A stretch of 64,000 nucleotides of DNA, from assembly GCF_036321535.1 (NCBI RefSeq), contig NC_087444.1, forward strand, positions 68,386,001 to 68,450,000, read 5' to 3'. The notes under the pieces are model-generated. The model searched no databases. It saw only the letters and a program-made list of their open reading frames with translations, and was not told where the DNA came from. Numbering within the stretch: the stretch's first letter is position 1; every line of letters begins with the position of its first letter. This document shows, one piece after another, positions 3,552 through 63,307 of the stretch. The translations under genes and the position numbers were made by a program. The stretch comes from Camelus dromedarius. Lineage: Eukaryota.

Positions 3552-12714
<9,163 letters not shown>

Positions 12715-29154: not shown

Positions 29155-29185
29155 GGTGACACTGCGAAGCGACGCCCCCATGTCC

Positions 29186-29228
29186 TTTTATGCATCTGAT
29201 CCGTGGGAAAGGAGAAGCTGCGAGATAA
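29186..29228 (-). promoter_or_regulatory. SYCN proximal promoter: CATAAAA TATA-like box, E-box, PTF1-like E/TC composite, GATA site
   Basis: Minus strand reads ...TTATCT...CAGCTT-CTCC-TTTCCCA...CAGATG CATAAAAG, 30-75 nt upstream of the ATG. Confidence 0.6.
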
Positions 29229-38380: not shown

Positions 38381-39310
38381 CCTCAAGACTTCTGTACAAT
38401 AATAAATGTTCTCATTATTAAGGCATTTTTACTTACTATTACTTTACTTGTAACAGAATGCACTCTAGTGACACCATCACACACGTACTGTGCTTGGCTG
38501 AATAATAACCCAACAAAGATACCCACACCATCCCTAGAAGTTATAAATATCTTGTACACACCAAAGGGACAGTGCTGTTGTAATTAAGGTTTATTGACTT
38601 TAAAATAGAGGCATTAACCTGGGTTGCTTGAGAAGGCCCAATCTGAACACATGAGTTCTTAAAAGTACAGAACTTTCTCAAGCTGAGGGCAGAAATGTGA
38701 CAGAAGAAGACGTGGGAGGGATTCCAGGCATGAAGAGGACTTGACCCACCATCGCGGGCTCTGAGGTAGAAGGTCCACTTACTGGGACCAGAAAGAGGTA
38801 GCCAAGAGCTAAGGACAGGTCTTCACAGCCAGCAAGGAAATGGGACAAGGCGCCTGACAACCGCAAGGAGCAGAATTCGGCCAAAAACTTAGATGGGTTT
38901 ACAAAGCCTCCAAAACAACCCAGTTGGCCACAGTATGACTCAGCATTGTGAGACCCACAGCAGGGGAACCAGGCGAGCTCACCCGATCACTGCCCTGTGG
39001 AAACGTGAGAGAAGGAATTCAACTTGTGTTGAGATGCTCAGTTTGGGACAATTTGTTAGGGCAGCAAAAGTAGACCAATCCTCACACACGCAGTCGCAGA
39101 CCACAAAGAGCATCTTTTCCTCATTGTTTATTTGCAAAATTTTTACAAAAGGTAGAAAAATAAACATTTTATTGGGTCTGAGTTTGAGAATTCATACACA
39201 TAAATACAAAAATAGTGACTTGCAGGCAATAAATTAAGAAAATGGTTCTGATGCATCAATACACAAATAACATGTAAGATGCTGGAACAGGTTGCAGGTA
39301 GATCTCAGGC

Positions 39311-40748
39311 TCAGACACACAGGTGTCCGCTGGCGACACATTTCAGGTCCCGGGTGAGGAGGCGGAAGAGGTTGAACATGACAGAGGCCTCGAGGCAGTC
39401 CTGGGACTCCTGTGGGAGGGGAAATGGCTCAGTGGTCCCCGTGCCTGGGCGCCCAGCTGCTCCCAGACATCAGTTTCCCCACCGCGGTCACTCACCTTCT
39501 TCGGGGCCTCCTGGAGCCGGTGCAGCCAGTGGTGGAGGCGGTCCCGGGGCCTGGGGCCTGCTGTGGGCTGAGCTGGGACCTGTGGGCAGAGGAGGGGGGT
39601 GTGAGGGGGTGAGGAAGGGCCTGGGACAGAGAGGGACATTCAGGAGGTCAGAGCCCAGACACGCTGCGGGTGGCCCGAGCACTCACACAAGCCTGGAGCT
39701 GGGAGTGGATGTGGCCCAGGGTGTGCAGGGGCTGGTCCAGGGTGCTGCCCAGGGATGAGTTAGCCATGGTCCCCAGGACGGCCAGGGTCAGGGCCACCTC
39801 AGCCTTCAAGGCCACGGGACGCTCCCACACCTGAGGCGGGGAGACAGGGGCAGGGGAGAGCTGCATGTGAGAGAGGACAAGGGAGGAGGGGCAGGTGGGG
39901 AGGACACAGGCAGGGACAGTTGAAGGGGAAGGTCAGGGTCAGGGGAGAGGCACAGCCGATGTGGTCAGCGGAGGGGAAGGGGTCGGGGACAGGTGGGCAG
40001 GGCGGAGAGAGGAGGAGGCGGGAGGAGGAGGAGGGGAGGGGCCGCCTGCAGAGCCAGGTGATCTGGGCCAGGTGAGGGCAGGTGGGCCTGACTCTCCGGA
40101 CTCACCTGCAGCTGCCTCAGGTCCCGGGTCCTGGGGAAGATGCGCGAGCTGCAGTTCCAGTCCTTCTGCAAGAGTGACTCTTCCTAGGGAGCAAGAGCAA
40201 GGTCAGCCCACAGCACGACCGAGGGGAGACCCCGGTGAGACTGGAGGGAGGCCGACCTCAGGAGGAGGGGAGGTGAAGGTCCAAAGGACGGCAGAGGCAC
40301 GACCACCACAGGAGGACAGGGCTCAGCCCTCTGCGGGGAGGGCGAGGGGCCGGTGAAGGGAGAGCAGGTCCCCCTTGAGCAGAGGAAGCCCGGGCACCCA
40401 CAGCGCGGGGGTGGAGGGGAGCCCACAGCAGGCGGGGCTGGGGGACACTCACAAAGGCGTCCTTGGCTCTCTTGAAGGCCTGCAGCTCTTGTGGGGACAG
40501 AGACTTGAACTGGGCCAGGTGGCAGCCCCTTGTGCCCGGGAGGGCCCTGAGGGGTGAGGGGACAGGAACTGCTCCTGTCCTGGTCAGCGCTGCGGTCATC
40601 AGCAACAGCCCCAGCAGGCAGCCCGAGGTCATGCCTGTGTTGTGGAAGGAGAGGAACGTGAGGGGACGTAGGTCACTGGGGACTGAGGGGAGGGCGTTTT
40701 GTGGGGCTCAGGTCCCGGGCAATGATGTCGGAGCTCACCCAGCTTCAT
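39311..40748 (-). CDS. IFNL3: Interferon lambda-3-like (IL-28B-like), left-arm copy
   Basis: Micro-exon 40748-40739 (MKL G), then exons 40634-40453, 40183-40106, 39830-39687, 39579-39496, 39409-39311. MTSGCLLG...GCHLAQFKSLSPQELQAFK...CLEASVMFNLFRLLTRDLKCVASGHLCV*; 194 aa from the ATG at 40632. Confidence 0.95.
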
Positions 40749-40967
40749 TCCTGGTCTCTGGTCTCTGGTCTCTGTCAGCAGGTGGGGGATCAAGTGTCCA
40801 CTCCGAGGCTGTCGCCTGAGATCTCTCAGTCTTGTTTGACGTCTCTGACCCCAGTCTTCTCTTCTGGACCTCAGCCCGCTGCTCTGTCCGAGTGTCTGAA
40901 CTTCCAGCTCCGTCTGAGGTCTAATTCCTGCCTGAGCTCCATGGTGCCGCTTTTAGCCTGTGCAGCT

Positions 40968-41103
40968 GGGCAATCCCAGCTGATGTAGGAAAAGTGAAAA
41001 CACAGCTAGAGGGTGACACCGGCCACCAGGGAGGCCCAGGCAGGAAAGCCCAGAGCAGGGCGGGGCCTGGGAGCCAGGTGAGCAGCTGAGTGAAAGAGAA
41101 ACT
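40968..41103 (-). promoter_or_regulatory. IFNL3 promoter module (left copy): ISRE, IRF-E/PRDI, NF-kB
   Basis: On the + strand: GAAAGAGAAACT 41092-41103, GGAAAAGTGAAA 40988-40999, GGGCAATCCC 40968-40977. Confidence 0.8.
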
Positions 41104-43555
41104 GACATCCATTAGGGCTCACCTCCAAGAAAGTGCGTTCTGAAGACAAAATCCAGGCTGGGGCAGCTGCAGCCCCACATGGGGGTGCCTTGTGCAGTGG
41201 CCAGGCTAGATCTAGGACTGGAGTGGGGAGGGGACAGAGGGATTCCTTTCTGCAGGATGCCCCAGTGCAGGGAGTGGAGGGAAAGAGCACGCCTAGAAGG
41301 AGTTGCCGGGAAGAACCTGGACCTTCCAAGTGGGAGGCTGTTTAGGTGATGGGAGAAGATCTGGGGGTGCTGCTGGGGGTGGGGAGAGAGAGTCAGAAGG
41401 CAAAACACACCCATTAAGAGAGAAGACCAGCTCCTCCCCACCTTTTGCAACCTGGTACAGACAAAGATGGAATGGGGGAGGAGGGGAGCCCGCACTAACA
41501 TCTCTAATTGTCCAGGCATAGAAGGACCCAGGAACAGGAGGCTCTGCTCTGGAATTGCGGGCCGACCAAGCCTTCAAGGGAACCAGCTTGGTTTGTGACA
41601 AACACCTTCATTCGTTCACCAAATATTTATTCAGCCACCACTTTGGGTCAGACCCTGTTCAAGGTGCCAGGGCAAGAGCACTGAAAAAAGAAAAAGACAT
41701 ACCACAATCCTTCATGGAGCTTTTTACTAGAGAGGAGGAACACACAGTGGAGGTCGGGGAGTTAGGCTTGTGGTGTGTATTGTGTCAGAGAACGTCAGAT
41801 AACAGAAAATGAAAAAATGAAACAGGGATGAGAGCAGAGTGCGGGAGGAAGTTTGCATTAAATGAGGTGTCTGAGAAATGACATTTAGGGAAAGACCTAA
41901 AGGAAGTGAGGGAGGGAGCTCTGTGAAGATCCGAGGGGGAGCATTCTGCGAAAAGGGAACAGTCAGTGCAAAAGGAAAACAGACACCACCGCCACCCCCA
42001 CTTTTGGTGTATGTCTCACCCTGTCACAGAGGCTTGGCCACAACGTGGTTAAATACCCACAATAGCACCAAGGACTTACTGTGCTTTGCCTACATGTCAA
42101 ATACAGATGGAAGTTTAGAGACTCAGAGAGGTTAAGAGACTTGTTCAAGGTCACACAGCAAATAACTAGTGAGGGCAGGATTTTAACTGAGTTTTGCCTG
42201 GCATCAGGCAATAACCACTGCACCCTCCAGCCTGACTGTAGCGAGACCTCCTGGACCTGGAAGTGATGGATTTCTTGGACAGAAGTTGCTGAGTCCTTTT
42301 TGACTGTTACTCCCACCCTCTCTTTCCCTCATTTTAATTCCAGGGAGAGGGTAGACTGAAATCCATGTTGGGGAATATCTTTGAGGTCTGATACGCAAAA
42401 ATGTTTTAAAATCAATAGCAGGGATGTGCAAGTCACTCCTGGTGTTCTGGTCAGTTTCTGTCACTTGGAGGAGGCCTTACCTCAGGGGAGGAGACAATGA
42501 AACAAGAATGAATTTTGAAAATTAACTTATTATCTCAAAATCCCTAGACATCATAATGTCTTTCTTAGAAAGAAAGCTCAGGGAGTGGTTAGGAACATGT
42601 GATCGAGAGCTGAAGACTTGGGGGCTCCTCACTAGCTGTGTGATCTTGGGAAACAGGCTTTGCAGTTGGCCACAAAGATTACCCATCCTGCCCAGATCTC
42701 GATGAATGTAAAAAGTACAATTGTTTGCACTTTTATGTGTGTGATTATTTCATGGAGACCATTTATTAAGATCATTCTGTGACTTCAGCTGGAAGCTTCA
42801 CGAGCACTATTTCAATGTGTATTACTCATGGCAAGGGACGTGTAATAATATCATGGCATAGAAGACTAAACGGAGGCTGGGTACACAATTAAGTGTCAGG
42901 GGCAGAACTGAAACTCAGGTCACCTGATTTCCCTCTCAGCATTTTGTGCTGTACAGTCACCCTCAAAATGATCACAGAGAAACAACCAATGCAAATGCAA
43001 TAATATTTAATAACTGGCGATAAATTAACCCAAGAAGACAAAAGAGCAAATATACATAGGAACTTCATAAATACAAAACACACAAAAGTAACGGAATTCA
43101 AAAAACTACTTAACAGAAGGACTCTTGCCCAGTCCCTCATGGAATGAGGTCTCCCCAGCAGAGAGATCCAACAGTCCCATATTCATGGAATGTCAAAGCG
43201 GGCACTGAAGGTTCAAAGCAGGCGTTGGAACCTGTCAAGGGACAGGGAGGTTTCTGTAACCACAGAAGTAGAAACTGGTCCATGGTACGTGGTGGTCAAC
43301 GACCAAGGTCGACACGGAATCCAGTCTTTTCCTGCCAGCCCGGGGCCCTGGAAGATCTTAGGGCGACACTTCCCACGGAAATAGAGCGGCTTCCAGGGGG
43401 AACTGGTTCTGGCCCTGGGAAAAGGGCGCCTCTGGCACCAGCGCAGGCGGGTGGAGGCTGAGAGACCCGCCGGGTCCAATGGGGCAGCGGAGGAGGGCGG
43501 CGCCCGCAGCCAGGCGACCTCGCAGCTTCGGGTCCCAGGCGGGGCCGCGGCGGGA

Positions 43556-44891
43556 TCACAGACAAGGTCCCGAGTTTGCCACCAGCCGCAGGTCCCACGC
43601 GAGCAGGCGCAGGAAGTTGAAGATGACTCTGGCTTCATGACACCGAGGCGACTCCTGGAACCCGGGAAGGAGGCAGAGCCGGGCTGAGTCAGGGCCCCCC
43701 CCCTGCACTCCGTCACCGCTCCAAGGCGCGCGCCCGGCCCGTCTCAGCCTCACACCGTCCTCCCTGCGGTCTAACCGCTTGACCGCCCGCTCCACTCACA
43801 GCTCTGCGAGTTTTGTGACGCCTCCTGGGCGGCCGCGGGGACTTCCTCCAGGAGCCTGGCCGGACCAGCTGGAGCTGGAGGGGAACCGCACGTAACTTGA
43901 AGACGGCGAAGAACGGAGCCTCCCTCCCAGGTGGCTCCGCCCCTCACCCTCCCAGCCGCAGACCCAAGCCCGGATTAGGGGACACCGAGCGAGCTGGGAG
44001 GGGTGCGGGGCCAGGGCGGGACCGGCACTCACGCAGGCCGCCACGTCCCGCCCCGCGGCCGTCAGCAGCTCCAGGGTCGGGCCGACGCCGGGGAACAGCT
44101 CCGGGCTCGGCAGGCTGCTCAGCACGGCCTGGGCGTCGGCGAGGCCGCGGGCCACCAGGCGGAGTCGGGCGCAGGACTGCGGGGACCGAGCGGCAGTTAG
44201 ATGGGGCCGCGCTCGGGGCCCAAGTCCCCAAGCCCCTGCCGGCCGCGGGCCTCACCGACGGCGGCGGAGGGTTCCTCCTCGGGTGGAACGAGCAGTTGCG
44301 CGGCCTCCAGCTCAGCGTCTCTTCCTCCTGCGGGACAAGGGCCGGGATGATGCTGGGGATCCTCGCGGATTCCTGCACGTGGATCGGAACTGGCCCTCAA
44401 GGTTGTGCTCATCGTGTCCTGACCAGAGAGCTCTCTGAAGGCGCGAGGCAGGCCTGAAATGCACCTGCGCTCCAGGTGCGGATCCTGCGCCGGGACGTGG
44501 AGCCGAGTCCACCTGAAGGGGGCGCCCCTCTGTGACAGCCACTAAGGCCCGGTATGAGCTGACCACCAGGGCGGCTGGAAAGATGTGATCTGAATTCTGG
44601 ACCCCGAGATCCAGGATGCGCCTGCTGGACGCTAGGACAAGAGGGCCCCTCGGGACAAAGGTTGTCGTCTCGGGACCCGGGGGCCCAGGGTCCGGGGGAC
44701 AGAGGCGTGTGGGCATCACTCACATAGCGGTTCCTCAGGGCCTTGGCTGCCTCCAGTGCCCGGGGATCCAGGGAGCGGTATTGGGAGAGGAGGCAGCGCC
44801 CGGGAGCCTCCACACCGGGGTCCACCGCCACGCCCGCTGTCACCAAGACCCACAGCCCCATGGCCACCGCGGCTGCGCCACTCGGCCCCAT
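43556..44891 (-). CDS. IFNL4: Interferon lambda-4, left-arm copy, intact 5-exon ORF, 185 aa
   Basis: Exons 44891-44724, 44327-44256, 44176-44033, 43874-43800, 43654-43556; all phase 0, GT-AG; same protein as the right copy. Confidence 0.95.
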
Positions 44892-46366
44892 CTCTGCTCC
44901 TGCAAGAGGCGACAGACGTCAGGGAGCCCAAGGAGAAAGCCCCCAAGTCCAAGCCCCTGCCTCTGGTCAGACTCGCAGAGGGATTGACGCTCAGAGGGCG
45001 GGCACTGAGCCCTCTCAGGGGGAGAGACAGGATGGGCCCGGACACCTACTCCTACCTTCAGCCTCTCTCCCCTCACTCCTCACCTACCATGTGTCTTCGG
45101 TGCCACTTGCTGCAGCAGGGCCTGCCTTCCAGTGTCCCCTGGGTGGTGTCCCGGGTGGTGTCCAGATTGTTGTCCACCTGGGACAGTGGTACCTGCACCC
45201 TCCATGGTGGCTCTTAAGTGAGGGGCTGAGAATGATGAGCAGCCGGGCTTCCCCATGCAGGTTGTTTCCCAACGTCATTGCTGGCCATTGATCGGCCTGG
45301 AGAGTTGCAGGCATGGTGTGAGGACTTTACCCGCTCGTGGGACAGTGCCAGCAATGACTCTACCCAAACTCTTCTGCCACCAGTTATTGTTTCTGTCCCT
45401 TTCTGTATCCTCTTGCTTTCTTTTCGTCACCCTCGGTTTCCTTATCTCTGTTGTATAATAATAACCAGCCCTTATACAGTGTTACTGTTACTAGGCCTTG
45501 TTCTAAGTAATTGATATGCACATGTCTCATTTAATGCTCAAAAAATAACACTGCCAGAATTTTTCTACCTCCAATTCATGGGTGGGAAAACTGAGCCACA
45601 GTAAAGGGAAGGAACTTTTCCAAGATACAAAGTAACTGGCAGAGGCAGGATTTGAATATATACTCAGTCCAGCCTCAAAGCTTGGTCTAACCCATTAACT
45701 CCCCCTATATATCTAATTCAATGCCTCCTTCTCTCTCTTCACTGTCTGTCTGTGTTTCATTCCATTTCTCTTTCATCCCTCTCTTTATGCCTCCCTTTTC
45801 TCTCTGTTGCTCAGTTCCTGGTTTTGTCTCTGTCCATGTCTAATTCCATCTTTCTTTTTCTAGCAAGCATTCAGGCCAGGGTCTTTCTGTCTGTCTCTGT
45901 CTCAAGCAGTCTCTTTGTTTTGAATGAAAAATGAAATCTACCACTTATCTTGATAAAATTAGCAATGCAGGATCATTGGTTAAAGCTTGAAAAATATAGA
46001 CATAATATAAGGGAGGAAAAAACCCACCCATAACTTCACCACCCACCTCTCTCCCCTCACCCCAGCTCTGGAACAATTTTTCCCATGTGTAGAAATGTTA
46101 AACATATTTATTTGTGCATATGTTTTCTGATTATCAAAGTAACACATTCATTATAAAGATACAGTCAATACAAAAACATACAACTTGGAGAGTTAAAGTC
46201 TTGAATCCCACTTCCTGGACGTAATCTTTTTAGTCATCAGTTACTATTCCTCTTTTTTTTTTTTTTCTCTCTCTCTCTCTCTCTTTCGATGAACAATTTC
46301 TCTCAAATTGAAACCAGGCTGTATAAAGTTTAGCAGCTTGCTTTTCGTGTCTTACCATTATCTCTT

Positions 46367-46751
46367 TTTTTTTCTTTTTCTTTTTTAACATTTTTTATTG
46401 ATTTATAATCATTTTACAATGTTGTGTCAAAGTCCAGTGTAGAGCACAATTTTTCAGTTATACATGAACATATATATATTCATTGTCACATTTTTTTCTC
46501 TGTGAGCTACCATAAGATCTTGTGTATATTTCCCTGTGCTATACAGTATAATCTTGTTTATCTATTCTACAATTTTGAAATCCCATCTATCCTTTCCCAC
46601 CCTCCGCCCCCTTGGCAACCACAAGTTTGTATTCTATGTCTGTGAGTCTATTTCTGTTTTGTATTTATGCTTTGTTTTTTTTGTTTTTGTTTTTGTTTTT
46701 GTTTTTTAGATTCCACATATGAGCGATCTCATATGGTATTTTTCTTTCTCT
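46367..46751 (-). mobile_element. Young 5'-truncated L1 3' end with a 15-bp TSD
   Basis: T-rich tail at the left and L1 3'UTR-like body (tagattccacatatgagcgatctcatatggtatt); TSD ttaccattatctctt at 46352-46366 and 46752-46766. Confidence 0.85.
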
Positions 46752-47339
46752 TTACCATTATCTCTTGTTTGCATTCCCCCACATCTTTAGTTATATTGTA
46801 TCAGTGAAGGTCCCTGCAGGAAACAGATGGCCCAGTCAGTTTAGGGTAACTTGAGGTGGGTTTAATACCAGGAGTATTTACAAACGGATTGGATAGTGAA
46901 GGAAACAGATGAGGAGTAGTGCAAGGCCTTGGGACCCACATGCATGAGGGTCTATCATCTGTAGGCCTGAACAAAAGGGAGGGAAGGGAGTGGTTACTTG
47001 ACCTGGAAGGGAGGGGTCAGGTACACAGGTGGAGGACACAGAGAGGTAGTGGTTGCCCTGAATGAAGGAAGCCTGGGGAGTAAATACTCTAACACTCTCC
47101 TTCTCTTCTCTCTGGCCCTACTCCTAGGCTCCCCATTGGCTGCACCCAACAGAAGCCAAAGGCCAGCTTCCTGGGGCCCAGAGGTGGGTGGAGAAGTGGG
47201 AGGGGCAAAAGGGAGACATCCCACCTATACCACTAGTAAGGCTTCCATTCTAACAGGATTATTGAATAACCATCCCCTATTGGTGAACATGAATGTTCTT
47301 TTCAGTGTTTTGTTAAAGTCATGGTTCTCAAGGCTAGGG

Positions 47340-48150
47340 GTGAGAAAGGAAGTAATTTTTCATTCTTTTAACAGTATCTTTCATAGGGCTGAAGTTTTAT
47401 ATTTTTCCATCTCATTGATTTTCTTCTTTTATGGATGATGCTTTCATGATTTTAATAAGTCATCACCTTGGTCCCTTACATTTTCTCCTATTTTACATTC
47501 TAGGAGTTTTATAGTTCTGCACTTCACGTTTAGGTCTATGATACGTTTTAAGTTAATTTTTGTGAAATGTGTAAGGTCTGTATCTAGGTTTTTTTTTTTT
47601 TCCCCTACGTGAAAGTTCTTTCAATACCATTTGTTGGAAAGACTATCTTCTCATCATTGAATTGCCTTTGTTCCTTTCTTAAAGACCAGTTGACTTTATT
47701 TGNNNNNNNNNNNNNNNNNNNNNNNNNNNNNNNNNNNNNNNNNNNNNNNNNNNNNNNNNNNNNNNNNNNNNNNNNNNNNNNNNNNNNNNNNNNNNNNNNN
47801 NNNNNNNNNNNNNNNNNNNNNNNNNNNNNNNNNNNNNNNNNNNNNNNNNNNNGTGAAAGCTATTCTGGGCTTTTTGGATCGCTGTATAAACTTTTACTTT
47901 GTCAATATTTACAAATTAACTTGCTGGGATTTTAATTGGATTGCAAGGAATCTATAGATTAAGTTGGGAAGAACTGACATCTTGACAATATTGAGTCTTC
48001 CTATCCAAGTTCATAGAGTATTTTCATTTTTAGATGTTCTTTTATTTCTTTCATCAGTCTTCCTCATATAGATCGTGTTCAGTATTTGTTAGATTTGTAC
48101 TTAAGCATTTCATTTTTGGGTGGTGCTGATGTAAATGGTCCTTTTTTTTA
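47340..48150 (-). mobile_element. Old L1M ORF2 fragments (spanning the N gap 47703-47852)
   Basis: Reverse L1 ORF2-like text (tttaggtctatgatac...caataccatttgttggaaagactatc; gaactgacatcttgacaatattgagtcttcctatcc). Confidence 0.6.
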
Positions 48151-49989
48151 ATTTCAAACTCAAATTGTTTATTGCTATTATACAAGAAAGAAATGGACCT
48201 TTGTATATTAACCTTTATCTGGCAACATTGCTATAATCACTTATGATTCAGAAATATGTTTTTAAATGCATAATATTAAATACACAGGACTATGAAGGAA
48301 ACTGACTATATTGAAACACAGTTACCAAAACATAAAAGCAATTTTGTGATAAGTAATACATATGCCTTTTTATTAATGTATTAAGTAACAAGATATTGCA
48401 ATGAGTTTAATAACTACTATACTTTTGTGGTAGTAATGAGAGTAAATGATATTTCAAGATGTGTGCCACATCGCTAACATGTTATGAAATATTTATGACT
48501 CCTTTTAGTGACAAAGTCACAGATTCTGCTAATACTATTGTGGTTTGTTACTTACATTCATCATGGAAAGAAATGCTAAATTTCAGTTAAGGTTAGTGAA
48601 GATGGAAATGCAGCTTTTTCTCATGTAAGTTCACCCTCTCCTGAATCCTATCATGGGGTGGTCCACGAACCCCAGGTTAAGCTAGATTTGCAGCAGTTAA
48701 ACAGAATGAAGTAGATCTATATGCACTGACATGGAAAAACTTTCAAGGCATATTACAGAGTGAAAAAAGTAAATTGCTGAACAATACACATGGTGTGACA
48801 CTCCTTGTGTTTATAAGTACTCACACATGCAAAAGCAATTCAGTGGAGAAAAATCGCCTATTCAACAAATAGTGCTGGAGTAATTGGACACCCATAGGCT
48901 AAAAAAATGAACCTTGACCTAAACCTCACATTAAAATAAAAATTAACTCAATATGTGACATGGACTTAAACATAAATTATAAAGCTATAAAACTTTGAGA
49001 AAGAATTATGAAAAACCTCTTCAGGCAATAGGAGGTGCTGGAAGCAGATTGAGGGAGGAAGGAAAGCAAAGTTGGAGTATTTATTCTCCCTTCTGGTTCC
49101 CTCCTGGCAGGGATAAGATCTGACAGTGGCTGGGTTCCTCTGTCTCCAGCCACACATCTCACCTAGGATGGTAACAGCTCTCCGTGTTGCCAGCCTCCAG
49201 GTGCATCACCGCCCTTTGTTGATTTCATTAATCCTACCCACTTTTTCCCAGGTTAAACATTTGAATAGGTCCCCTGCTTCCTGTACATATCGTTTTTTCC
49301 GGAGTTTGTTTAATTGAAATTTTTACTGAGATCATTGTAAGGTATCTCTGGGAAGCACATGGGAACCGAGGAGATGATCATGCATGCTGTTATAAGAAAT
49401 AATACAAAGAGATCCTGTACACTCTACCCAGCTTCCCCCAGTGGTCGCATCTTACAAAATTACAATATTACAACCAGGAAATTGAAGGATACAATCCACC
49501 CGTCTTATTCAGATAGCCCCTAGATGTTCATCTAAATTGTTGCATGTATCAATTGTTCATTCCTGTTTCATACCAGACTTTGCTTAATCGTTCACCCTTT
49601 GAAGGACCTCTGGGCTGTTTCTACTTTTCGGCTATTACTAATAATGCTGCAATGAACATTTGTGTTCAGATGACTGTGTGGACATCAGTTTTCATTTCTC
49701 TGGAATAAATACCCAGGAGTTCAATTGCTGGGTTGATGTGCAGTTGCATGTTTAGTTTTACAAGAAGCTGCCAAACTGTTTTTTGGAGGGGCTGTACAAT
49801 TTTTACATTCCTGCAGGTCACTTATGAGGGATCCAGTTTCTAGATTGTTTTTTAAGTTTTGCTCACAAATAAGTTCCCCAGAGCTTTTTTTGTTGTTGCT
49901 ATTGTCTCCTAAATTCTTGAAGCAGTTTTCTTTTAATAGAGTAAACATCTCAAACAGTGGATCTCAAGAAACTTTTCTGCGAGGATGAT

Positions 49990-50335
49990 ATTTGTCTTTG
50001 TCCAGTTGGGCTGCTTATAACAAAATACCACAGACTGGGGAGCTTAAAAACAACAGAAATTTATTTCTTACAGTTCTGGAGCCACGATCAAGGCACCAGC
50101 ATGGTCAGGTAAGAGCTCTCTTCCAGGTGACAAAATTCTCATTTGGTCCTCACATGGTGGAAGGGGGCGAGGGAGCTCTGTGAGGTCTCTTTTTAGGAGG
50201 ACTAATCCCATTTTTGAGGGCTCCATCTCATGCCTTAATCACCTCCTAAAGACCTCCACCTCCTAATACCATCACCTTTGTTGGTTAGGATTTCAACATA
50301 ACAATTTTTGAGGGGACATTCAAACCACAGCAGCC
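49990..50335 (-). mobile_element. MLT1 solo LTR
   Basis: gggctgcttataacaaaataccacagactggggagcttaaaaacaacagaaatttatttcttacagttctggag... typical of a reverse-oriented MLT1. Confidence 0.7.
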
Positions 50336-52594
50336 TGTATTAAATGTAATTTGTGATTGCACCTAACTCAAGCAAATAACCTGCATTGCAGTGCCCAGAG
50401 TTGAATCACTGATTATTGAGAACTTGCATCTGGTACTTTCCTGTGTCCAATCCCACTGCATTCCACTCTTCCTGCCGTTATCAATTTTACTTCCAGTTCT
50501 TCAGTCTTTGAAGACACGTGGTTTCACTTCAGCCCCATCATGTGTATCAGGACACTTTTGGTAGCAAAAATAAAAAACAAACAAACCAAAAGTCCAACTC
50601 AAGCTGGCTTGAACAATGGAGAACTTATGGACTTATAAAACTTAGAAGTCCAAAATTAAGGTGAGGCTGCAGGTAAAGTTTGATCCTGTAAGACATAGTG
50701 AAACTCCCAATTTTGTTTTATCTTGTTTTTTATCTTTCAGGTCTCCCTTCCACTGGTGGGAAGACTGCTTACCCTTATAATTCCAAGATGAGTGCTAGTG
50801 ATTCCCCTGGCTTCACACTTCATCCTTCTCCAGTAGGAAGAAGATAGCGTCTTTCTCCCAGGAAGTCCAGGATTGAGATTCATTCTGATTAGATTGGCTT
50901 AAGTCAAATCCCCAACCCCAAACCCAATCACCGTGGCCAGAGAGATGAACTAAAGTAAATGGCTGCAGCCAGGTCACATACCCCAATCCCAGGAATGCGG
51001 GGGGGTGGTCAAGTCACCTTCCTAAAACCATTTGGATCTGCAGTCAAAGTGGGGGATGCTGGGATGGGTGAGGGGAGAGGTAACAGAAGCTTGGAAAGTT
51101 TGCTGCATGGACACTTTGGAGGAAACTCTTCTAATGTTTCAGCAGAATTTCTCACGTGCTTTTTCAGAGTGCTTATGTTTCAACAACTTTGATGTTTCTT
51201 AAAACTTCTATGCCTTGGAATAGGAAAATATACACTGAAAAACAAAATAAGTTTCTCATATTAATGCTGAGGAAGACATATACCTGAAAAACAGCCATTA
51301 CTTTCCTGCAATTATCAATATTTATTAATGAACTTAATTATAATTAATTAAAGGTGGTCTCATATAGGAAGCTTGGCTGAACGTGCCCTGAACATACCTA
51401 AGCTATTCTGCACATGGATAGATCTGTCTATATAGATGAGAAATGGCAACACTAACCCAGACAGCCTGGGATCATATCTACAAGCTGTGTGATCTTGGGC
51501 AGACTCACAGCCTCTCTGTGCCTCAGTTTCCTCATCTATAAAATGTCAGCCAGTGAGAGGACCTACCTCACAGTGTTGCTGGGAAGAATAAAGCAGTAAA
51601 TATGTGAGAAGAGCTTAAAGCAGTGCCAAGCACACAAGAAGTGCTCAGTATGTATTAGCTATAATTATTATTGACAATGGTTGAGAAAAACATGTCTGCA
51701 ATTCCAACTTTCAACAGCAAACTAACAATAGTTTTATAATTGGTAAAGGCATAAATATCACTTAATAACAGACTAAGGAGGCCAGAGAGAGCTTGTCTAA
51801 GGTCTTGATGAGGAAAAAACCTGAGAAAACAGAGGAGAGCAATATTCATGCAAAGAACAAGATATAAAAAGACAGGGAGAGAAAGACAGGATATAATGAC
51901 AAGAAAAGAGTGATTGAAGAGAGAGCACAAGAAACCCTAGTATGAACTCCTGCAGGGCAGGCACTTGTATGGGGACCTCTGCCATGTTTGCAGCTTCCAA
52001 CAGGAGGAAATAGTCTGTTTTCAGTTCACTCTTAGAGTGTGAAAGAAAGAAAAACACACAGAAAAGATAAACAGAATCCTCAAAATGAACAGTAGTAATT
52101 GACCCAGGAGAGAGGGTCCGAGCAAAGTCATTGTTGACACTGTCGCACAAGCAGGTAAAGTCATCACACACTGGCCAGGATCCCACCCGGCCAGCAGCCA
52201 GCAATGGATGACGTTGGGAAACAACCTGCATGGGGAAGCCCGGCTGCTCATCATTCTCAGCCCCTCACTTAAGAGCCACCATGGAGGGTGCAGGTACCAC
52301 TGTCCCAGGTGGACAACAATCTGGACACCACCCGGGACACCACCCAGGGGACACTGGAAGGCAGGCCCTGCTGCAGCAAGTGGCACCGAAGACACATGGT
52401 AGGTGAGGAGTGAGGGGAGAGAGGCTGAAGGTAGGAGTAGGTGTCCGGGCCCATCCTGTCTCTCCCCCTGAGAGGGCTCAGTGCCCGCCCTCTGAGCGTC
52501 AATCCCTCTGCGAGTCTGACCAGAGGCAGGGGCTTGGACTTGGGGGCTTTCTCCTTGGGCTCCCTGACGTCTGTCGCCTCTTGCAGGAGCAGAG

Positions 52595-53929
52595 ATGGGG
52601 CCGAGTGGCGCAGCCGCGGTGGCCATGGGGCTGTGGGTCTTGGTGACAGCGGGCGTGGCGGTGGACCCCGGTGTGGAGGCTCCCGGGCGCTGCCTCCTCT
52701 CCCAATACCGCTCCCTGGATCCCCGGGCACTGGAGGCAGCCAAGGCCCTGAGGAACCGCTATGTGAGTGATGCCCACACGCCTCTGTCCCCCGGACCCTG
52801 GGCCCCCGGGTCCCGAGACGACAACCTTTGTCCCGAGGGGCCCTCTTGTCCTAGCGTCCAGCAGGCGCATCCTGGATCTCGGGGTCCAGAATTCAGATCA
52901 CATCTTTCCAGCCGCCCTGGTGGTCAGCTCATACCGGGCCTTAGTGGCTGTCACAGAGGGGCGCCCCCTTCAGGTGGACTCGGCTCCACGTCCCGGCGCA
53001 GGATCCGCACCTGGAGCGCAGGTGCATTTCAGGCCTGCCTCGCGCCTTCAGAGAGCTCTCTGGTCAGGACACGATGAGCACAACCTTGAGGGCCAGTTCC
53101 GATCCACGTGCAGGAATCCGCGAGGATCCCCAGCATCATCCCGGCCCTTGTCCCGCAGGAGGAAGAGACGCTGAGCTGGAGGCCGCGCAACTGCTCGTTC
53201 CACCCGAGGAGGAACCCTCCGCCGCCGTCGGTGAGGCCCGCGGCCGGCAGGGGCTTGGGGACTTGGGCCCCGAGCGCGGCCCCATCTAACTGCCGCTCGG
53301 TCCCCGCAGTCCTGCGCCCGACTCCGCCTGGTGGCCCGCGGCCTCGCCGACGCCCAGGCCGTGCTGAGCAGCCTGCCGAGCCCGGAGCTGTTCCCCGGCG
53401 TCGGCCCGACCCTGGAGCTGCTGACGGCCGCGGGGCGGGACGTGGCGGCCTGCGTGAGTGCCGGTCCCGCCCTGGCCCCGCACCCCTCCCAGCTCGCTCG
53501 GTGTCCCCTAATCCGGGCTTGGGTCTGCGGCTGGGAGGGTGAGGGGCGGAGCCACCTGGGAGGGAGGCTCCGTTCTTCGCCGTCTTCAAGTTACGTGCGG
53601 TTCCCCTCCAGCTCCAGCTGGTCCGGCCAGGCTCCTGGAGGAAGTCCCCGCGGCCGCCCAGGAGGCGTCACAAAACTCGCAGAGCTGTGAGTGGAGCGGG
53701 CGGTCAAGCGGTTAGACCGCAGGGAGGACGGTGTGAGGCTGAGACGGGCCGGGCGCGCGCCTTGGAGCGGTGACGGAGTGCAGGGGGGGGCCCTGACTCA
53801 GCCCGGCTCTGCCTCCTTCCCGGGTTCCAGGAGTCGCCTCGGTGTCATGAAGCCAGAGTCATCTTCAACTTCCTGCGCCTGCTCGCGTGGGACCTGCGGC
53901 TGGTGGCAAACTCGGGACCTTGTCTGTGA
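52595..53929 (+). CDS. IFNL4: Interferon lambda-4, right-arm copy, intact 5-exon ORF, 185 aa
   Basis: Exons 52595-52762 (MGPSGAAAVAMGLWVL...RCLLSQYRSLDPRALEAAKALRNRY), 53159-53230 (EEETLSWRPRNCSF), 53310-53453 (SCARLRLVARGLADAQAVL...DVAAC), 53612-53686, 53831-53929 (ESPRCHEARVIFNFLRLLAWDLRLVANSGPCL*); 558 nt. Confidence 0.96.
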
Positions 53930-54717
53930 TCCCGCCGCGGCCCCGCCTGGGACCCGAAGCTGCGAGGTCGCCTGGCTGCGGGCGCCGCCCTCCTCCGCTG
54001 CCCCATTGGACCCGGCGGGTCTCTCAGCCTCCACCCGCCTGCGCTGGTGCCAGAGGCGCCCTTTTCCCAGGGCCAGAACCAGTTCCCCCTGGAAGCCGCT
54101 CTATTTCCGTGGGAAGTGTCGCCCTAAGATCTTCCAGGGCCCCGGGCTGGCAGGAAAAGACTGGATTCCGTGTCGACCTTGGTCGTTGACCACCACGTAC
54201 CATGGACCAGTTTCTACTTCTGTGGTTACAGAAACCTCCCTGTCCCTTGACAGGTTCCAACGCCTGCTTTGAACCTTCAGTGCCCGCTTTGACATTCCAT
54301 GAATATGGGACTGTTGGATCTCTCTGCTGGGGAGACCTCATTCCATGAGGGACTGGGCAAGAGTCCTTCTGTTAAGTAGTTTTTTGAATTCCGTTACTTT
54401 TGTGTGTTTTGTATTTATGAAGTTCCTATGTATATTTGCTCTTTTGTCTTCTTGGGTTAATTTATCGCCAGTTATTAAATATTATTGCATTTGCATTGGT
54501 TGTTTCTCTGTGATCATTTTGAGGGTGACTGTACAGCACAAAATGCTGAGAGGGAAATCAGGTGACCTGAGTTTCAGTTCTGCCCCTGACACTTAATTGT
54601 GTACCCAGCCTCCGTTTAGTCTTCTATGCCATGATATTATTACACGTCCCTTGCCATGAGTAATACACATTGAAATAGTGCTCGTGAAGCTTCCAGCTGA
54701 AGTCACAGAATGATCTT

Positions 54718-54723
54718 AATAAA
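54718..54723 (+). terminator. Probable IFNL4 poly(A) signal (mirror at 42762-42767)
   Basis: AATAAA ~790 nt after the stop; ATTAAA at 54474-54479 is an alternative. Confidence 0.5.
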
Positions 54724-56381
54724 TGGTCTCCATGAAATAATCACACACATAAAAGTGCAAACAATTGTACTTTTTACATTCATCGAGATCTGGGCAGGAT
54801 GGGTAATCTTTGTGGCCAACTGCAAAGCCTGTTTCCCAAGATCACACAGCTAGTGAGGAGCCCCCAAGTCTTCAGCTCTCGATCACATGTTCCTAACCAC
54901 TCCCTGAGCTTTCTTTCTAAGAAAGACATTATGATGTCTAGGGATTTTGAGATAATAAGTTAATTTTCAAAATTCATTCTTGTTTCATTGTCTCCTCCCC
55001 TGAGGTAAGGCCTCCTCCAAGTGACAGAAACTGACCAGAACACCAGGAGTGACTTGCACATCCCTGCTATTGATTTTAAAACATTTTTGCGTATCAGACC
55101 TCAAAGATATTCCCCAACATGGATTTCAGTCTACCCTCTCCCTGGAATTAAAATGAGGGAAAGAGAGGGTGGGAGTAACAGTCAAAAAGGACTCAGCAAC
55201 TTCTGTCCAAGAAATCCATCACTTCCAGGTCCAGGAGGTCTCGCTACAGTCAGGCTGGAGGGTGCAGTGGTTATTGCCTGATGCCAGGCAAAACTCAGTT
55301 AAAATCCTGCCCTCACTAGTTATTTGCTGTGTGACCTTGAACAAGTCTCTTAACCTCTCTGAGTCTCTAAACTTCCATCTGTATTTGACATGTAGGCAAA
55401 GCACAGTAAGTCCTTGGTGCTATTGTGGGTATTTAACCACGTTGTGGCCAAGCCTCTGTGACAGGGTGAGACATACACCAAAAGTGGGGGTGGCGGTGGT
55501 GTCTGTTTTCCTTTTGCACTGACTGTTCCCTTTTCGCAGAATGCTCCCCCTCGGATCTTCACAGAGCTCCCTCCCTCACTTCCTTTAGGTCTTTCCCTAA
55601 ATGTCATTTCTCAGACACCTCATTTAATGCAAACTTCCTCCCGCACTCTGCTCTCATCCCTGTTTCATTTTTTCATTTTCTGTTATCTGACGTTCTCTGA
55701 CACAATACACACCACAAGCCTAACTCCCCGACCTCCACTGTGTGTTCCTCCTCTCTAGTAAAAAGCTCCATGAAGGATTGTGGTATGTCTTTTTCTTTTT
55801 TCAGTGCTCTTGCCCTGGCACCTTGAACAGGGTCTGACCCAAAGTGGTGGCTGAATAAATATTTGGTGAACGAATGAAGGTGTTTGTCACAAACCAAGCT
55901 GGTTCCCTTGAAGGCTTGGTCGGCCCGCAATTCCAGAGCAGAGCCTCCTGTTCCTGGGTCCTTCTATGCCTGGACAATTAGAGATGTTAGTGCGGGCTCC
56001 CCTCCTCCCCCATTCCATCTTTGTCTGTACCAGGTTGCAAAAGGTGGGGAGGAGCTGGTCTTCTCTCTTAATGGGTGTGTTTTGCCTTCTGACTCTCTCT
56101 CCCCACCCCCAGCAGCACCCCCAGATCTTCTCCCATCACCTAAACAGCCTCCCACTTGGAAGGTCCAGGTTCTTCCCGGCAACTCCTTCTAGGCGTGCTC
56201 TTTCCCTCCACTCCCTGCACTGGGGCATCCTGCAGAAAGGAATCCCTCTGTCCCCTCCCCACTCCAGTCCTAGATCTAGCCTGGCCACTGCACAAGGCAC
56301 CCCCATGTGGGGCTGCAGCTGCCCCAGCCTGGATTTTGTCTTCAGAACGCACTTTCTTGGAGGTGAGCCCTAATGGATGTC

Positions 56382-56535
56382 AGTTTCTCTTTCACTCAGC
56401 TGCTCACCTGGCTCCCAGGCCCCGCCCTGCTCTGGGCTTTCCTGCCTGGGCCTCCCTGGTGGCCGGTGTCACCCTCTAGCTGTGTTTTCACTTTTCCTAC
56501 ATCAGCTGGGATTGCCCAGCTGCACAGGCTAAAAG
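56382..56535 (+). promoter_or_regulatory. IFNL3 promoter module (right copy): ISRE, IRF-E/PRDI, NF-kB, TATA-like
   Basis: AGTTTCTCTTTC 56382-56393, TTTCACTTTTCC 56486-56497, GGGATTGCCC 56508-56517, CTAAAAG 56529-56535. Confidence 0.8.
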
Positions 56536-56736
56536 CGGCACCATGGAGCTCAGGCAGGAATTAGACCTCAGACGGAGCTGGAAGTTCAGACACTCGGACA
56601 GAGCAGCGGGCTGAGGTCCAGAAGAGAAGACTGGGGTCAGAGACGTCAAACAAGACTGAGAGATCTCAGGCGACAGCCTCGGAGTGGACACTTGATCCCC
56701 CACCTGCTGACAGAGACCAGAGACCAGAGACCAGGA

Positions 56737-58174
56737 ATGAAGCTGGGTGAGCTCCGACATCATTGCCCGGGACCTGAGCCCCACAAAACGCCCTCCCCTC
56801 AGTCCCCAGTGACCTACGTCCCCTCACGTTCCTCTCCTTCCACAACACAGGCATGACCTCGGGCTGCCTGCTGGGGCTGTTGCTGATGACCGCAGCGCTG
56901 ACCAGGACAGGAGCAGTTCCTGTCCCCTCACCCCTCAGGGCCCTCCCGGGCACAAGGGGCTGCCACCTGGCCCAGTTCAAGTCTCTGTCCCCACAAGAGC
57001 TGCAGGCCTTCAAGAGAGCCAAGGACGCCTTTGTGAGTGTCCCCCAGCCCCGCCTGCTGTGGGCTCCCCTCCACCCCCGCGCTGTGGGTGCCCGGGCTTC
57101 CTCTGCTCAAGGGGGACCTGCTCTCCCTTCACCGGCCCCTCGCCCTCCCCGCAGAGGGCTGAGCCCTGTCCTCCTGTGGTGGTCGTGCCTCTGCCGTCCT
57201 TTGGACCTTCACCTCCCCTCCTCCTGAGGTCGGCCTCCCTCCAGTCTCACCGGGGTCTCCCCTCGGTCGTGCTGTGGGCTGACCTTGCTCTTGCTCCCTA
57301 GGAAGAGTCACTCTTGCAGAAGGACTGGAACTGCAGCTCGCGCATCTTCCCCAGGACCCGGGACCTGAGGCAGCTGCAGGTGAGTCCGGAGAGTCAGGCC
57401 CACCTGCCCTCACCTGGCCCAGATCACCTGGCTCTGCAGGCGGCCCCTCCCCTCCTCCTCCTCCCGCCTCCTCCTCTCTCCGCCCTGCCCACCTGTCCCC
57501 GACCCCTTCCCCTCCGCTGACCACATCGGCTGTGCCTCTCCCCTGACCCTGACCTTCCCCTTCAACTGTCCCTGCCTGTGTCCTCCCCACCTGCCCCTCC
57601 TCCCTTGTCCTCTCTCACATGCAGCTCTCCCCTGCCCCTGTCTCCCCGCCTCAGGTGTGGGAGCGTCCCGTGGCCTTGAAGGCTGAGGTGGCCCTGACCC
57701 TGGCCGTCCTGGGGACCATGGCTAACTCATCCCTGGGCAGCACCCTGGACCAGCCCCTGCACACCCTGGGCCACATCCACTCCCAGCTCCAGGCTTGTGT
57801 GAGTGCTCGGGCCACCCGCAGCGTGTCTGGGCTCTGACCTCCTGAATGTCCCTCTCTGTCCCAGGCCCTTCCTCACCCCCTCACACCCCCCTCCTCTGCC
57901 CACAGGTCCCAGCTCAGCCCACAGCAGGCCCCAGGCCCCGGGACCGCCTCCACCACTGGCTGCACCGGCTCCAGGAGGCCCCGAAGAAGGTGAGTGACCG
58001 CGGTGGGGAAACTGATGTCTGGGAGCAGCTGGGCGCCCAGGCACGGGGACCACTGAGCCATTTCCCCTCCCACAGGAGTCCCAGGACTGCCTCGAGGCCT
58101 CTGTCATGTTCAACCTCTTCCGCCTCCTCACCCGGGACCTGAAATGTGTCGCCAGCGGACACCTGTGTGTCTGA
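56737..58174 (+). CDS. IFNL3: Interferon lambda-3-like, right-arm copy
   Basis: Micro-exon 56737-56746 (ATG AAG CTG G|gt), then exons 56851-57032, 57302-57379, 57655-57798, 57906-57989, 58076-58174; 194 aa from the ATG at 56853 (198 aa with MKLG). Confidence 0.95.
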
Positions 58175-58209
58175 GCCTGAGATCTACCTGCAACCTGTTC
58201 CAGCATCTT

Positions 58210-58317
58210 ACATGTTATTTGTGTATTGATGCATCAGAACCATTTTCTTAATTTATTGCCTGCAAGTCACTATTTTTGTATTTATGTGTATGAATTCTCA
58301 AACTCAGACCCAATAAA
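58210..58317 (+). terminator. IFNL3 AU-rich 3'UTR and poly(A) signal (mirror at 39168-39275)
   Basis: ATTTA at 58251-58255 and 58280-58284; AATAAA at 58312-58317. Confidence 0.75.
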
Positions 58318-58551
58318 ATGTTTATTTTTCTACCTTTTGTAAAAATTTTGCAAATAAACAATGAGGAAAAGATGCTCTTTGTGGTCTGCGACTGCGTGTG
58401 TGAGGATTGGTCTACTTTTGCTGCCCTAACAAATTGTCCCAAACTGAGCATCTCAACACAAGTTGAATTCCTTCTCTCACATTTCCACAGGGCAGTGATC
58501 GGGTGAGCTCGCCTGGTTCCCCTGCTGTGGGTCTCACAAGGCTGAGTCATA

Positions 58552-59040
58552 GTGCAGTTGGCTGGTTGTTTGGGAGGCTCTGGGAACCATCTGCTTGAAA
58601 ACCCATCTAAGTTGTTGGCAGAATTCTGTTCCTTGTGGTGTCAGACTGATGTCCCATTTCCTTGCTGGCTGTGAAGGCCCATCCTTAACTCTTGGTGGTC
58701 TCTTTCTGGTCCTGGCACATGGACACTCTACCTCAGAGCCCGCGATGGTGGATCAGGTCCTCCTCATGCTTGGCAATCCCTCCCACTTCTCCTTCTGCCA
58801 CATTCTCCTCTGCCTCCAGCCTGAGAATATTTTCTGCTTTTAAGAACTCATGTGTTTAGATTGGGCCCTCTCGGGTTCCCCGGGATAATCTCCATATTTT
58901 AAAGTTAATAAACCTTAATTACATCAGTACAGTCCCTTTGGCATGTAACATGAAATATTTATAGCTTCTAGGGATGGTCTGGGTATTTTTGTGGGATTAT
59001 TATTCAGCCAAGCACAGTATATGTGTGATGGTGTGATGGT
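58552..59040. mobile_element. MLT1 LTR at the outer arm border (diverged counterpart at ~38480-38933)
   Basis: MLT1-like text (gaattctgttccttgtggtg...ttttaagaactcatgtgtttagattgggccc...ccttaattacatc), present in diverged form on both outer flanks. Confidence 0.65.
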
Positions 59041-61159
59041 GTCACTAGGTTGCATTCTGTTACAAGTAAAGTAATAGTAACTAAAAATGCCTTAATAATG
59101 AGAATATTTAGTATAGTACAGGATAAGGTGCCTTGAGCAGCAGTGGCTGGAATATCTTCCTGCGTGGTCAGTAGACTTGATTCTTGGGTTGCTTTGGCCT
59201 CTGACCCACACACACCCTGGGTCAGTCTTACTCATGTCATTGCTTGTGTTCCTCTGAGCATTCCATGGCTGGCCCTCTGATTTGAACCCTCAGTACCTTT
59301 TTGGGATTCTGTGACTCTGTCACTCTTAGATCTCAGTCCCTGAGGGATTTGGGGATCACAGGTGTCAAGTCCCAGTTATGATACTTTGGATTCTGCTATC
59401 GATATGGCCTTGTGTTTGCAAGCCCTGGTACCTGCGGTATAATTCTCTTCTCCTGGTGTCAACTCATTTTTATTTATTAAGTGGTGTTACACTTACTAGT
59501 GTGAGTGAAGGGTAACCCAACTGTGGACTCGGACCTGAATTTGATACTCAGATGGAACATTGACCTGCCAAGTCACTTTTAGTAATACACTTGCCTTTCC
59601 TGGCCTCTAGAGTTCTTCATCTGAAAATAACTTAGGGATGCCTCTCTTTGAAACGTTCATTTATTCATCCATGCAACCATTCAGTGGTCTGTTCATTCTA
59701 CATGGACAGTATTTCCTGGTTGCCTGTTAGTTGCCATTATTGGGGACACAGAGCCACAGGCTCTGGTCCTCAGGGAGTTTCAGACTGGGAAGCTGGTCAT
59801 CAAAGTTTGAGGAATAGAAAGGAGGTCGATGTGCTGGAGTCCAGAGCTCCGCAGAAGGGCTGGGAGTGAGGTTAGACAGGTAGACAGAGACCAGGGCCTT
59901 TGGGTCTGTGAGCTCTTTAAGTACTGGGATATTCCTGGACGATACATAGGGAATCACTGCAAAGTTTTAAGCAAAGAAGCAACTGCTCCATGTATGTTTC
60001 TAAAAGTTCAGGCCTCGGAAGAGGAGAGCTAACTGGAGTGCCTAAGAATGGGTGAGGGAGTTTGTGTGTGAGGTGATGGTGGTACGTATTCATGTAAAGA
60101 GGGTCTTCTGTAGATTAGAAACCATATACATTAAGCAATTAGTATCTCACCTGACGGACAGAAGTATCTCAATACAATAAAGGAGATGGTATGAATTTAG
60201 TGGCTAAAAATGCAAACCCTGAGGTCAGAGAGATCTTAGAATCCCAACTTCTGCTCACTTCGTTACTGTATGACCTGGCGAGTCAGCTAAACTTTTCATT
60301 TCCAGTCAGTACAATAGTTCTAATATCCTTCCTCGTCGGGTGGTTGTGGGAATTAAATGTGTTAAATCTTGTCAAGTACTCAAGCACAGACCCTGGCACA
60401 ACATAAGGACTCATTATTAAATCAATTTATCATCATTAAAAATTTTTTCTAACATGTGAGCTGTCAAATAAGAGAGGAAGCTTTATCCAAAGGCCCTATC
60501 TCTAAAATGGATAAAAGAGACACAGTTGTCAGCTCAACAAAAATTTCTCATGAGGTTCTTTTTGGCACAGCCCCTCCCCCACATCCTTTCGGGGTGAATC
60601 TTTATTGACCTAAACCAATCATGGGATTGGTTTGTGCAGACATGACTATGTGACTGCATCCGCCAGGATCCCAGCAGGATACCAAATGATCCAATGGGGT
60701 AAGGGATTTATTTAAGCAACAAAGTACAGATGAGGGGCATGGTTAAAGGAAACCGACAGAGGGAAGCCCCCAGGCCCAGCCAATAGCCAGAAGCCGTCAC
60801 CATTCCTAAGCCACCAGAAGTGACATGGGAGGGAGTGGTTACTAGTCCCCCGACAGAGATTCTGGAATAACACTGCTGCCAGCCCACAGCCCAGCAGGGA
60901 AGTAGACAACAGAGTAAACACCCACCTGCTCTCTTCTCCCACCTCCAATCTTCTGCCGACACCTCCCCTTGCCGACCCCAGCTGGAAGACAGAAGGTCGG
61001 GGAGTCCCCACTGATGTAATCCTGGACCCAGAGCAGAGTGGAGAGTGAACCTAGAGGGAAAAGAGAGGACATGTGTCACAGTGATCCAATTTGGGCCCAT
61101 GAGGAGGGGAATTTGGCCTGGAGGGAGGTAGATGCTCTCAGAAAGGTTTTATCGTGTTA

Positions 61160-62740: not shown

Positions 62741-63307
62741 TGTTACAGCTGGGTGTTACAGCTCAGTTGTGACAGCAAGCAGCACTGGGAGAGTTGGAGA
62801 ACTCAGGTTTATTACACTAGCGGGCCCAGAAAACTTAACACTTCAAGCTCTGGACCCCATCTGTAGGTTTACACAGGCCTTTTATAGGCTGCCATTCTTA
62901 CACTTTGCAACATCATATGCAAATAAAGTATAACAGAAGTTGACCAATCAGGAACAAGCTTTGTAGAAATAGCCCAATCAGGAGTGAGGGGAATGGACCA
63001 ATCAGGAGTGAGAGAAATAACCAATCAGGAGTGAGCTCCATGCAAATAAAGTACTACAAATGGACCAATCAGAAGTTAGGGAAGTGGACCAATCAGAAGT
63101 GAGAGTAATAACCAATCAGGAGTGAAGGAAATAACCAATCAGAAATAAGATCAGGGAACCAATAAAATTTTAGGTGTAAGTTAGCTGCTTTAGAGGCAAA
63201 AAGTGAGCTAGAGGCTCTGGGCCAAGGAACTGGACGGTGCTGGGAGGAGAGCAGCGGCCTTGCCTAGGGGTCCAGCCGGTCTTTTTATGGGGCTTCCCGC
63301 CTCAACA
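62741..63307 (-). mobile_element. ERV LTR with a tandem CCAAT/octamer U3 array, TATA box and poly(A) signal
   Basis: Minus strand starts TGTTGAGGCGGG (63307). CCAAT x9 (62944-63163), ATGCAAAT x2, minus-strand TATAAAA 62886-62880, minus-strand AATAAA 62813-62808, and it ends ...gctgtaaca. The left boundary is uncertain and I found no TSD. Confidence 0.65.

Follow-up and report, generated by a model that had tools for sequence, protein, structure and literature searches.

Two genes for interferon lambda4 (IFNL4) lie head-to-head in the dromedary genome, and their likeness raises the question of where the twin copies came from, how both have stayed intact, and whether they set camels apart from other mammals. 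An initial annotation of the window (i.e., the whole stretch of 64,000 nucleotides that was analyzed) had proposed that IFNL4 function is retained at doubled dosage in the camel lineage, and had placed this beside the role of camelids as MERS-CoV reservoirs. The camel IFNL4 genes are already annotated and the inverted layout is already known from human and mouse; eutherian IFNL4 paralogues may also have been listed by Premzl 2020 (IF1IC1/IF1IC2 naming, as cited). In the literature searched, we found no account of camelids or other mammals keeping two intact IFNL4 genes by conversion, nor any publication on the two-copy arrangement in Camelus.

Exon models built on the window sequence bore out the two intact, identical, head-to-head IFNL4 genes that the initial annotation had described:

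43556..44891, minus strand: IFNL4 copy A, ATG at 44891, 185 amino acids
44891-44724, 44327-44256, 44176-44033, 43874-43800, and 43654-43556, minus strand: exons of IFNL4 copy A
52595..53929, plus strand: IFNL4 copy B, ATG at 52595, 185 amino acids, the same as copy A
52595-52762, 53159-53230, 53310-53453, 53612-53686, and 53831-53929, plus strand: exons of IFNL4 copy B

The copies are transcribed divergently from start codons 7.7 kb apart. Each consists, as had been claimed, of five in-frame exons (168, 72, 144, 75, and 99 nt, all in phase 0) joined at canonical GT-AG splice sites in all four introns, which measure 396, 79, 158, and 144 or 145 nt. The coding sequence of 558 nt is identical between the copies and its frame is open in both; the sole difference between A and B is a 1-nt indel in a homopolymer run of G in intron 4. 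A DNA search of the genome returned exactly these two IFNL4 copies. Their bodies are CpG islands (70% GC, CpG o/e 0.74, as against 0.35 in the IFNL2/3 genes), and the first AATAAA-type signals lie 545-790 bp beyond the IFNL4 stop.

The protein encoded by both copies is the same as the Camelus IFN-lambda4 record P0094 at 185/185 residues, with no protein-level difference from XP_031313354.1, XP_032341955.1, XP_064346050.1, and XP_074227317.1, and shares 70% of its residues (130/185) with human IFN-lambda4. The Pfam IL28A profile (PF15177) matched P0094 at 1.5e-32 (113 bits, cut-off 27), which identifies a type III interferon. The PDB matches were the lambda4 cryo-EM chain 9BPU (2.4e-71), lambda3 (8.5e-8), and lambda1 (6.1e-6); judged by such similarity, the camel protein is a member of the IFNL4 subfamily, closer to lambda4 than to lambda1-3. 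The NCS sequon and the expected cysteines were rightly noted before: the former stands at residue 67 and the latter, six in number, at 33, 68, 82, 128, 158, and 184 in both copies. The hydrophobic N-terminus aligns with the predicted pig and cow leaders (PMC4722605 Table 1), making it a candidate signal peptide by homology. Among the residues whose roles were taken from PMC6181419 (N61, P70, L79, and E154), the equivalents of human N61, P70, and L79 are kept, and human position 154 (K154) is E in camel, the residue reported there as ~100-fold more active than human K154. Six of nine receptor-contact residues named in the available text of PMC11742915 are identical in camel; the three that differ, D42, E47, and N54, are also found in other mammals. 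Residues 24-185 are strongly basic (28 K+R, 14 D+E, pI 11.0), which fits both a helix E that hampers secretion and the antibacterial function in the gut that has been reported for lambda4 of pig and human (PMC11536128). Twelve IFNL4 orthologues, none of them camelid, activated an ISRE reporter (PMC4722605), and mammalian IFNL4 has been described as under purifying selection with a dN/dS of 0.23 (PMC4199494).

Both IFNL4 genes form the inner part of a mirror-image duplication of ~20 kb overall with arms of 6.35 kb, and the duplicated unit also holds an intact IFNL2/3-type gene that was absent from the initial annotation:

38392..38930: left outer shoulder, made up of an old dispersed repeat and unique flank; divergence from its mirror 13.5%
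38931..45278, minus strand: left palindrome arm (near-identical core) with IFNL4 and the IFNL2/3-type gene
39311..40748, minus strand: IFNL2/3-type gene copy A (human IFNL3 position), six coding exons as modelled, 198 amino acids, intact
45279..45359: left inner shoulder, short (about 80 bp), 19.5% diverged from its mirror
45360..52125: unique AT-rich spacer between the IFNL4 copies, 38% GC, with one short N stretch
52126..52207: right inner shoulder, mirror of the left inner shoulder
52208..58554, plus strand: right palindrome arm with IFNL4 and the IFNL2/3-type gene
56737..58174, plus strand: IFNL2/3-type gene copy B (human IFNL2 position), protein identical to copy A
58555..59121: right outer shoulder, mirror of the left outer shoulder

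Alignment of the arm cores gave 6273 matches, no substitution, and one gap, with three substitutions in the outer 74 bp. At both arm ends identity falls sharply from 100% to 80-87%, and the arm flank comparison found no convincing homology past the shoulders. The best other genome match of the outer shoulder (about 540 bp) is its mirror copy, at 83% and 534 bits with the unique flank included, whereas the remaining 41 matches reach at most 176 bits; on this ground we rejected independent repeat insertions as the source of the outer shoulders. An identical core bounded by old, diverged, mirrored edges is what marks a gene-converted palindrome. A single recent duplication would not give such a core together with old shoulders, but conversion tracts within an old duplication would; the 13.5% and 19.5% divergence of the shoulders therefore points to an old duplication that was recently homogenized, most likely by gene conversion. 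At substitution rates of 1.5-3e-9 per site per year, which are our own assumption, exchange in the shoulders ended roughly 25-75 My ago and the core was homogenized within about 80-160 ky. Conversion between the arms of a palindrome is an established general mechanism, and concerted evolution of inverted or tandem immune paralogues likewise combines an old duplication with a recently homogenized core and diverged edges. The camel palindrome differs from such general cases in its short autosomal arms of 6.3 kb and its 6.8-kb spacer.

An IL28A profile search of the genome produced 15 exon matches, corresponding to the four arm genes, an IFNL1-position gene, and one intronless copy. The landmarks around and beyond the palindrome are as follows:

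6579-7103, plus strand: PAK4-like exon, left of the IFNL cluster
28609-29187, minus strand: syncollin gene (SYCN; Pfam), left of the IFNL cluster
C9 about 68,470,690-68,472,212 (L005:689-2212), plus strand: multi-exon IFNL1-position gene, about 26 kb past the right arm, outside the window
contig C18 (L010:1486-2061), minus strand: intronless type III interferon, intact, 191 amino acids, Pfam IL28A 4.5e-71, IFNL1-like leader

The gene order is SYCN, IFNL3, IFNL4 / IFNL4, IFNL2, IFNL1 (broken), and an LRR/Ig gene, so that camel IFNL4 sits upstream of IFNL3 between syncollin and the LRR/Ig gene (Pfam). We take the 6579-7103 exon to be PAK4, and the LRR/Ig gene on the right is presumably LRFN1; no Pfam match was obtained for the PAK4 exon or for two ORFs that are candidates for NCCRP1 (3/9 queries blank). 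In human the interval runs from SYCN to LRFN1, and the IFNL cluster normally has PAK4 and SYCN to its left. The multi-exon camel IFNL1 is a pseudogene: an ATG is missing where the gene should start, exon 1 contains an in-frame stop, the beginning of exon 3 is altered, and the frame changes in exon 4. Single-exon IFNL copies on another chromosome have been reported in cow, dog, horse, cat, and bat (PMC2654155), and the intronless C18 copy is likely the only source of a camel lambda1-like protein. Elsewhere in the window, a ferritin-like reading frame at 16917-17459 (plus strand, Pfam 1.5e-13) is probably a processed ferritin light-chain pseudogene, and 62917-63148 carries short repeats with a 23-nt period and many CCAAT boxes, resembling a retroviral LTR promoter.

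In human and mouse, an inverted IFNL2/IFNL3 pair of roughly 6 kb is >97% identical and about 10 kb apart; independent duplications were favoured as its source, with conversion given as an alternative (PMC2654155). Human 19q13.2 resembles the camel locus in its inverted near-identical IFNL2/3 pair, the IFNL4-type gene upstream of each, and the five-exon IFNL4. The human pseudogene IFNL4P1 (IF1IC2) lies upstream of IFNL2 and has an early stop (PMC10517323), in agreement with the earlier statement that the human inverted-arm counterpart is a pseudogene. In camel, by contrast, the identical tract takes in IFNL4 and both copies are intact. Camel also differs from human in having E rather than K at position 154, no frameshift, and a broken multi-exon IFNL1.

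A homologue search with exon 3 yielded 93 clusters, 30 of which were examined; the resulting record counts are lower bounds with no clean denominator. Records were assigned to separate loci from accession numbers, locus tags, and same-contig placement, and several of the models are partial. By hand count, at least 36 non-camelid placental species in nine orders have two or more IFNL4-type records per annotation. Consecutive separate locus tags were present in Rhinolophus ferrumequinum (006684/006685), Phyllostomus (006599/006600), Cnephaeus (010406/010407), and Sousa (1610284-286). Among the matches listed, shrew, pika, elephant, rhino, and Myotis have 3-4 IFNL4 records, and pig, warthog, several cats, and gorilla have one; this varying copy number shows that birth-and-death also operates. 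Within camelids, the alpaca protein P0095 appears under two accessions, one with isoforms X1-X4 and the other far apart in number, and the wild camel has P0094 plus the model LOC116665954, which is separate from it but on the same contig; these records point to two IFNL4 loci in each species. Every diagnostic site covered by the five named Camelus records has the camel residue, and both alpaca records have alpaca residues. Other camelids may share the breakpoints; all the locus DNA that was aligned came from camel.

In 26 of 31 groups the most similar pair within a species reaches 97% identity or more over exons 3+5, as against 62-90% to camel, although four groups (dog, lion, reindeer, and buffalo) may each be one locus annotated twice. 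The groups below 97% are human (91%, IFNL4P1 versus IFNL4), orangutan (86%), minke whale, Phyllostomus, and Eptesicus. A quick tree of 86 rows (35/76 inner branches unresolved; unnamed and many redundant records excluded; two sheep-hybrid rows being partial chimeric models) grouped the IFNL4 copies by species or family. On protein records, with locus identity inferred, paralogues look closer within than between species for camel versus alpaca and for most mammals. In the same tree, human 1IC2 fell outside functional IFNL4 and beside a second copy from orangutan (SH-aLRT 96), which suggests that in apes the IFNL4 part dropped out of conversion early. Whales, ruminants, bats, rhino, elephant, shrew, and pika resemble camel in having two or more near-identical, lineage-clustered IFNL4-type records; they differ in that some have 3-4 and in that their copies are known from records, not from genomic orientation. 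Two IFNL4 copies therefore look like a common mammalian state rather than a camelid-specific one, and the exception would seem to be the apes, in which one copy has decayed. With the ORF intact and the key residues kept, both camel copies look functional, and to this extent the initial proposal of retained IFNL4 function stands. Its framing of the doubled gene as a feature of the camel lineage is not supported, given the multiple records per assembly in nine placental orders and the inverted pair that camel shares with human and mouse.

Alpaca and camel IFN-lambda4 differ at six residues, five of them derived on the camel side; this 5:1 split is too small to indicate acceleration on the camel branch, which we rejected. 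T119 and F167 are camel-only among the 86 rows (A in 82/86 and L in 80/86, respectively) and are present in both arms. Human L161, checked with regard to camel F167, is not mentioned in the available text of the lambda4 cryo-EM paper (PMC11742915). As a separate observation, R replaces both C33 and C82 (camel numbering) in whale and dolphin IFN-lambda4 (14/14 rows), a coordinated loss of two cysteines.

Taken together, we consider it probable that an inverted IFNL3-IFNL4 duplication of early placental age, kept identical by recurrent conversion between its arms, has the twin IFNL4 genes as its inner members. A recent camel- or camelid-specific duplication, or the re-duplication of one arm over the other, retained for more mucosal interferon, would account for a core that is fully identical over 6273 bp and would fit both the lability of IFNL copy number among mammals and the single IFNL4 record of pig and several cats among the matches listed. 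We nevertheless regard this as unlikely, given mirrored shoulders that are 13.5-19.5% diverged, the same layout in human and mouse, and two-locus records in alpaca and many other orders; for retention through interferon output, the available text of the alpaca MERS study holds no lambda4 data (PMC8195365). Camelid-specific doubling as such was rejected on the shoulder divergence and the cross-mammal records.

The likeness of the arms might instead be an artefact, in one of two ways. If both loci were real but the assembly made them look too similar, the true second copy could be a diverged one or, as in humans, a broken one. A homopolymer indel, a typical long-read error, is indeed all that distinguishes the cores, and the N stretch in the spacer is indistinguishable from a gap. 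On the other side, 14 public datasets from nine studies (five of the datasets not flagged as a possible source) hold 0.99-1.00 of the words sampled from 50000-59900, which speaks for the sequence of the right arm but says nothing about copy number, and independent annotations of dromedary, wild camel, and alpaca each contain several records that share the residues of their lineage. This makes a hidden broken copy improbable to a still greater degree, and consensus polishing could account for part of the full arm identity. A false duplication of a single IFNL3-IFNL4 unit has little beyond the identity of the arms to recommend it and is very improbable indeed: it was rejected because the two arms are bounded by distinct, diverged shoulders and by unique sequence and because other camelid annotations have two loci, and human and mouse share the layout.

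Under recurrent conversion of an old duplication, the arms would pair and overwrite each other, and a mutation in one copy would be either erased or copied to both. Purifying selection would keep both IFNL4 frames open, the two IFNL3-IFNL4 units would act almost as one gene, and lineage-specific residues would turn up in both copies. The product of either would be an ordinary type III interferon, presumably glycosylated at N67, poorly secreted through its basic helix E, and predicted to signal via IFNLR1/IL10RB and JAK-STAT. By analogy with pig and human IFN-lambda4, the cationic camel protein (pI about 11) might also have a direct antibacterial role.

The doubled IFNL4 dosage that had been proposed is unsupported. 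Upstream of the ATG, the sequence common to both copies extends for only about 390 bp, and their distal regulation may therefore differ; within this stretch, crude patterns for IRF, NF-kB, and TATA sites gave no match, a result uninformative on promoter strength. In six RNA runs the share of sampled words was 0.13-0.43, which does not amount to evidence of expression. In human and gorilla, induction of IFNL4 is weak and splicing mostly aberrant (PMC5110018), and the IFNL4 promoter is described as conserved yet poorly virus-induced (Zhou 2020, as cited in PMC11536128). The 29 matches to 'IFNL4P1' in PMC5110018 proved to be the isoform names IFNL4P107/131/179 and not the pseudogene. Nor did the suggested link to the MERS-CoV reservoir find backing: the alpaca MERS study measured lambda1 (up 11-fold) and lambda3 (up 350-fold), and its available text has no match for 'lambda4' (PMC8195365). 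The palindrome also doubles lambda3, as in human and mouse.

On a wider reading we are evenly divided. Two working IFNL4 genes in a self-correcting palindrome would be the ancestral placental state, and the human state would be where a stepwise decay in apes has led, its first step being the departure of IFNL4P1 from conversion before human and orangutan diverged, with E154K and the TT frameshift coming later; the camel-specific T119 and F167 (receptor-binding helix F region) would have been copied into both arms.

For work on camels, IFNL4 and IFNL3 each consist of two indistinguishable loci, which short-read mapping, qPCR, variant calling, and knock-outs must treat as pairs, and the intronless copy elsewhere is likely the sole source of what is called camel 'IFN-lambda1'. 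The IFNL4 pair does not set camels apart as MERS reservoirs. Instead, two copies look like a common mammalian state, which inverts the initial framing and makes the loss in apes and humans the more striking event.
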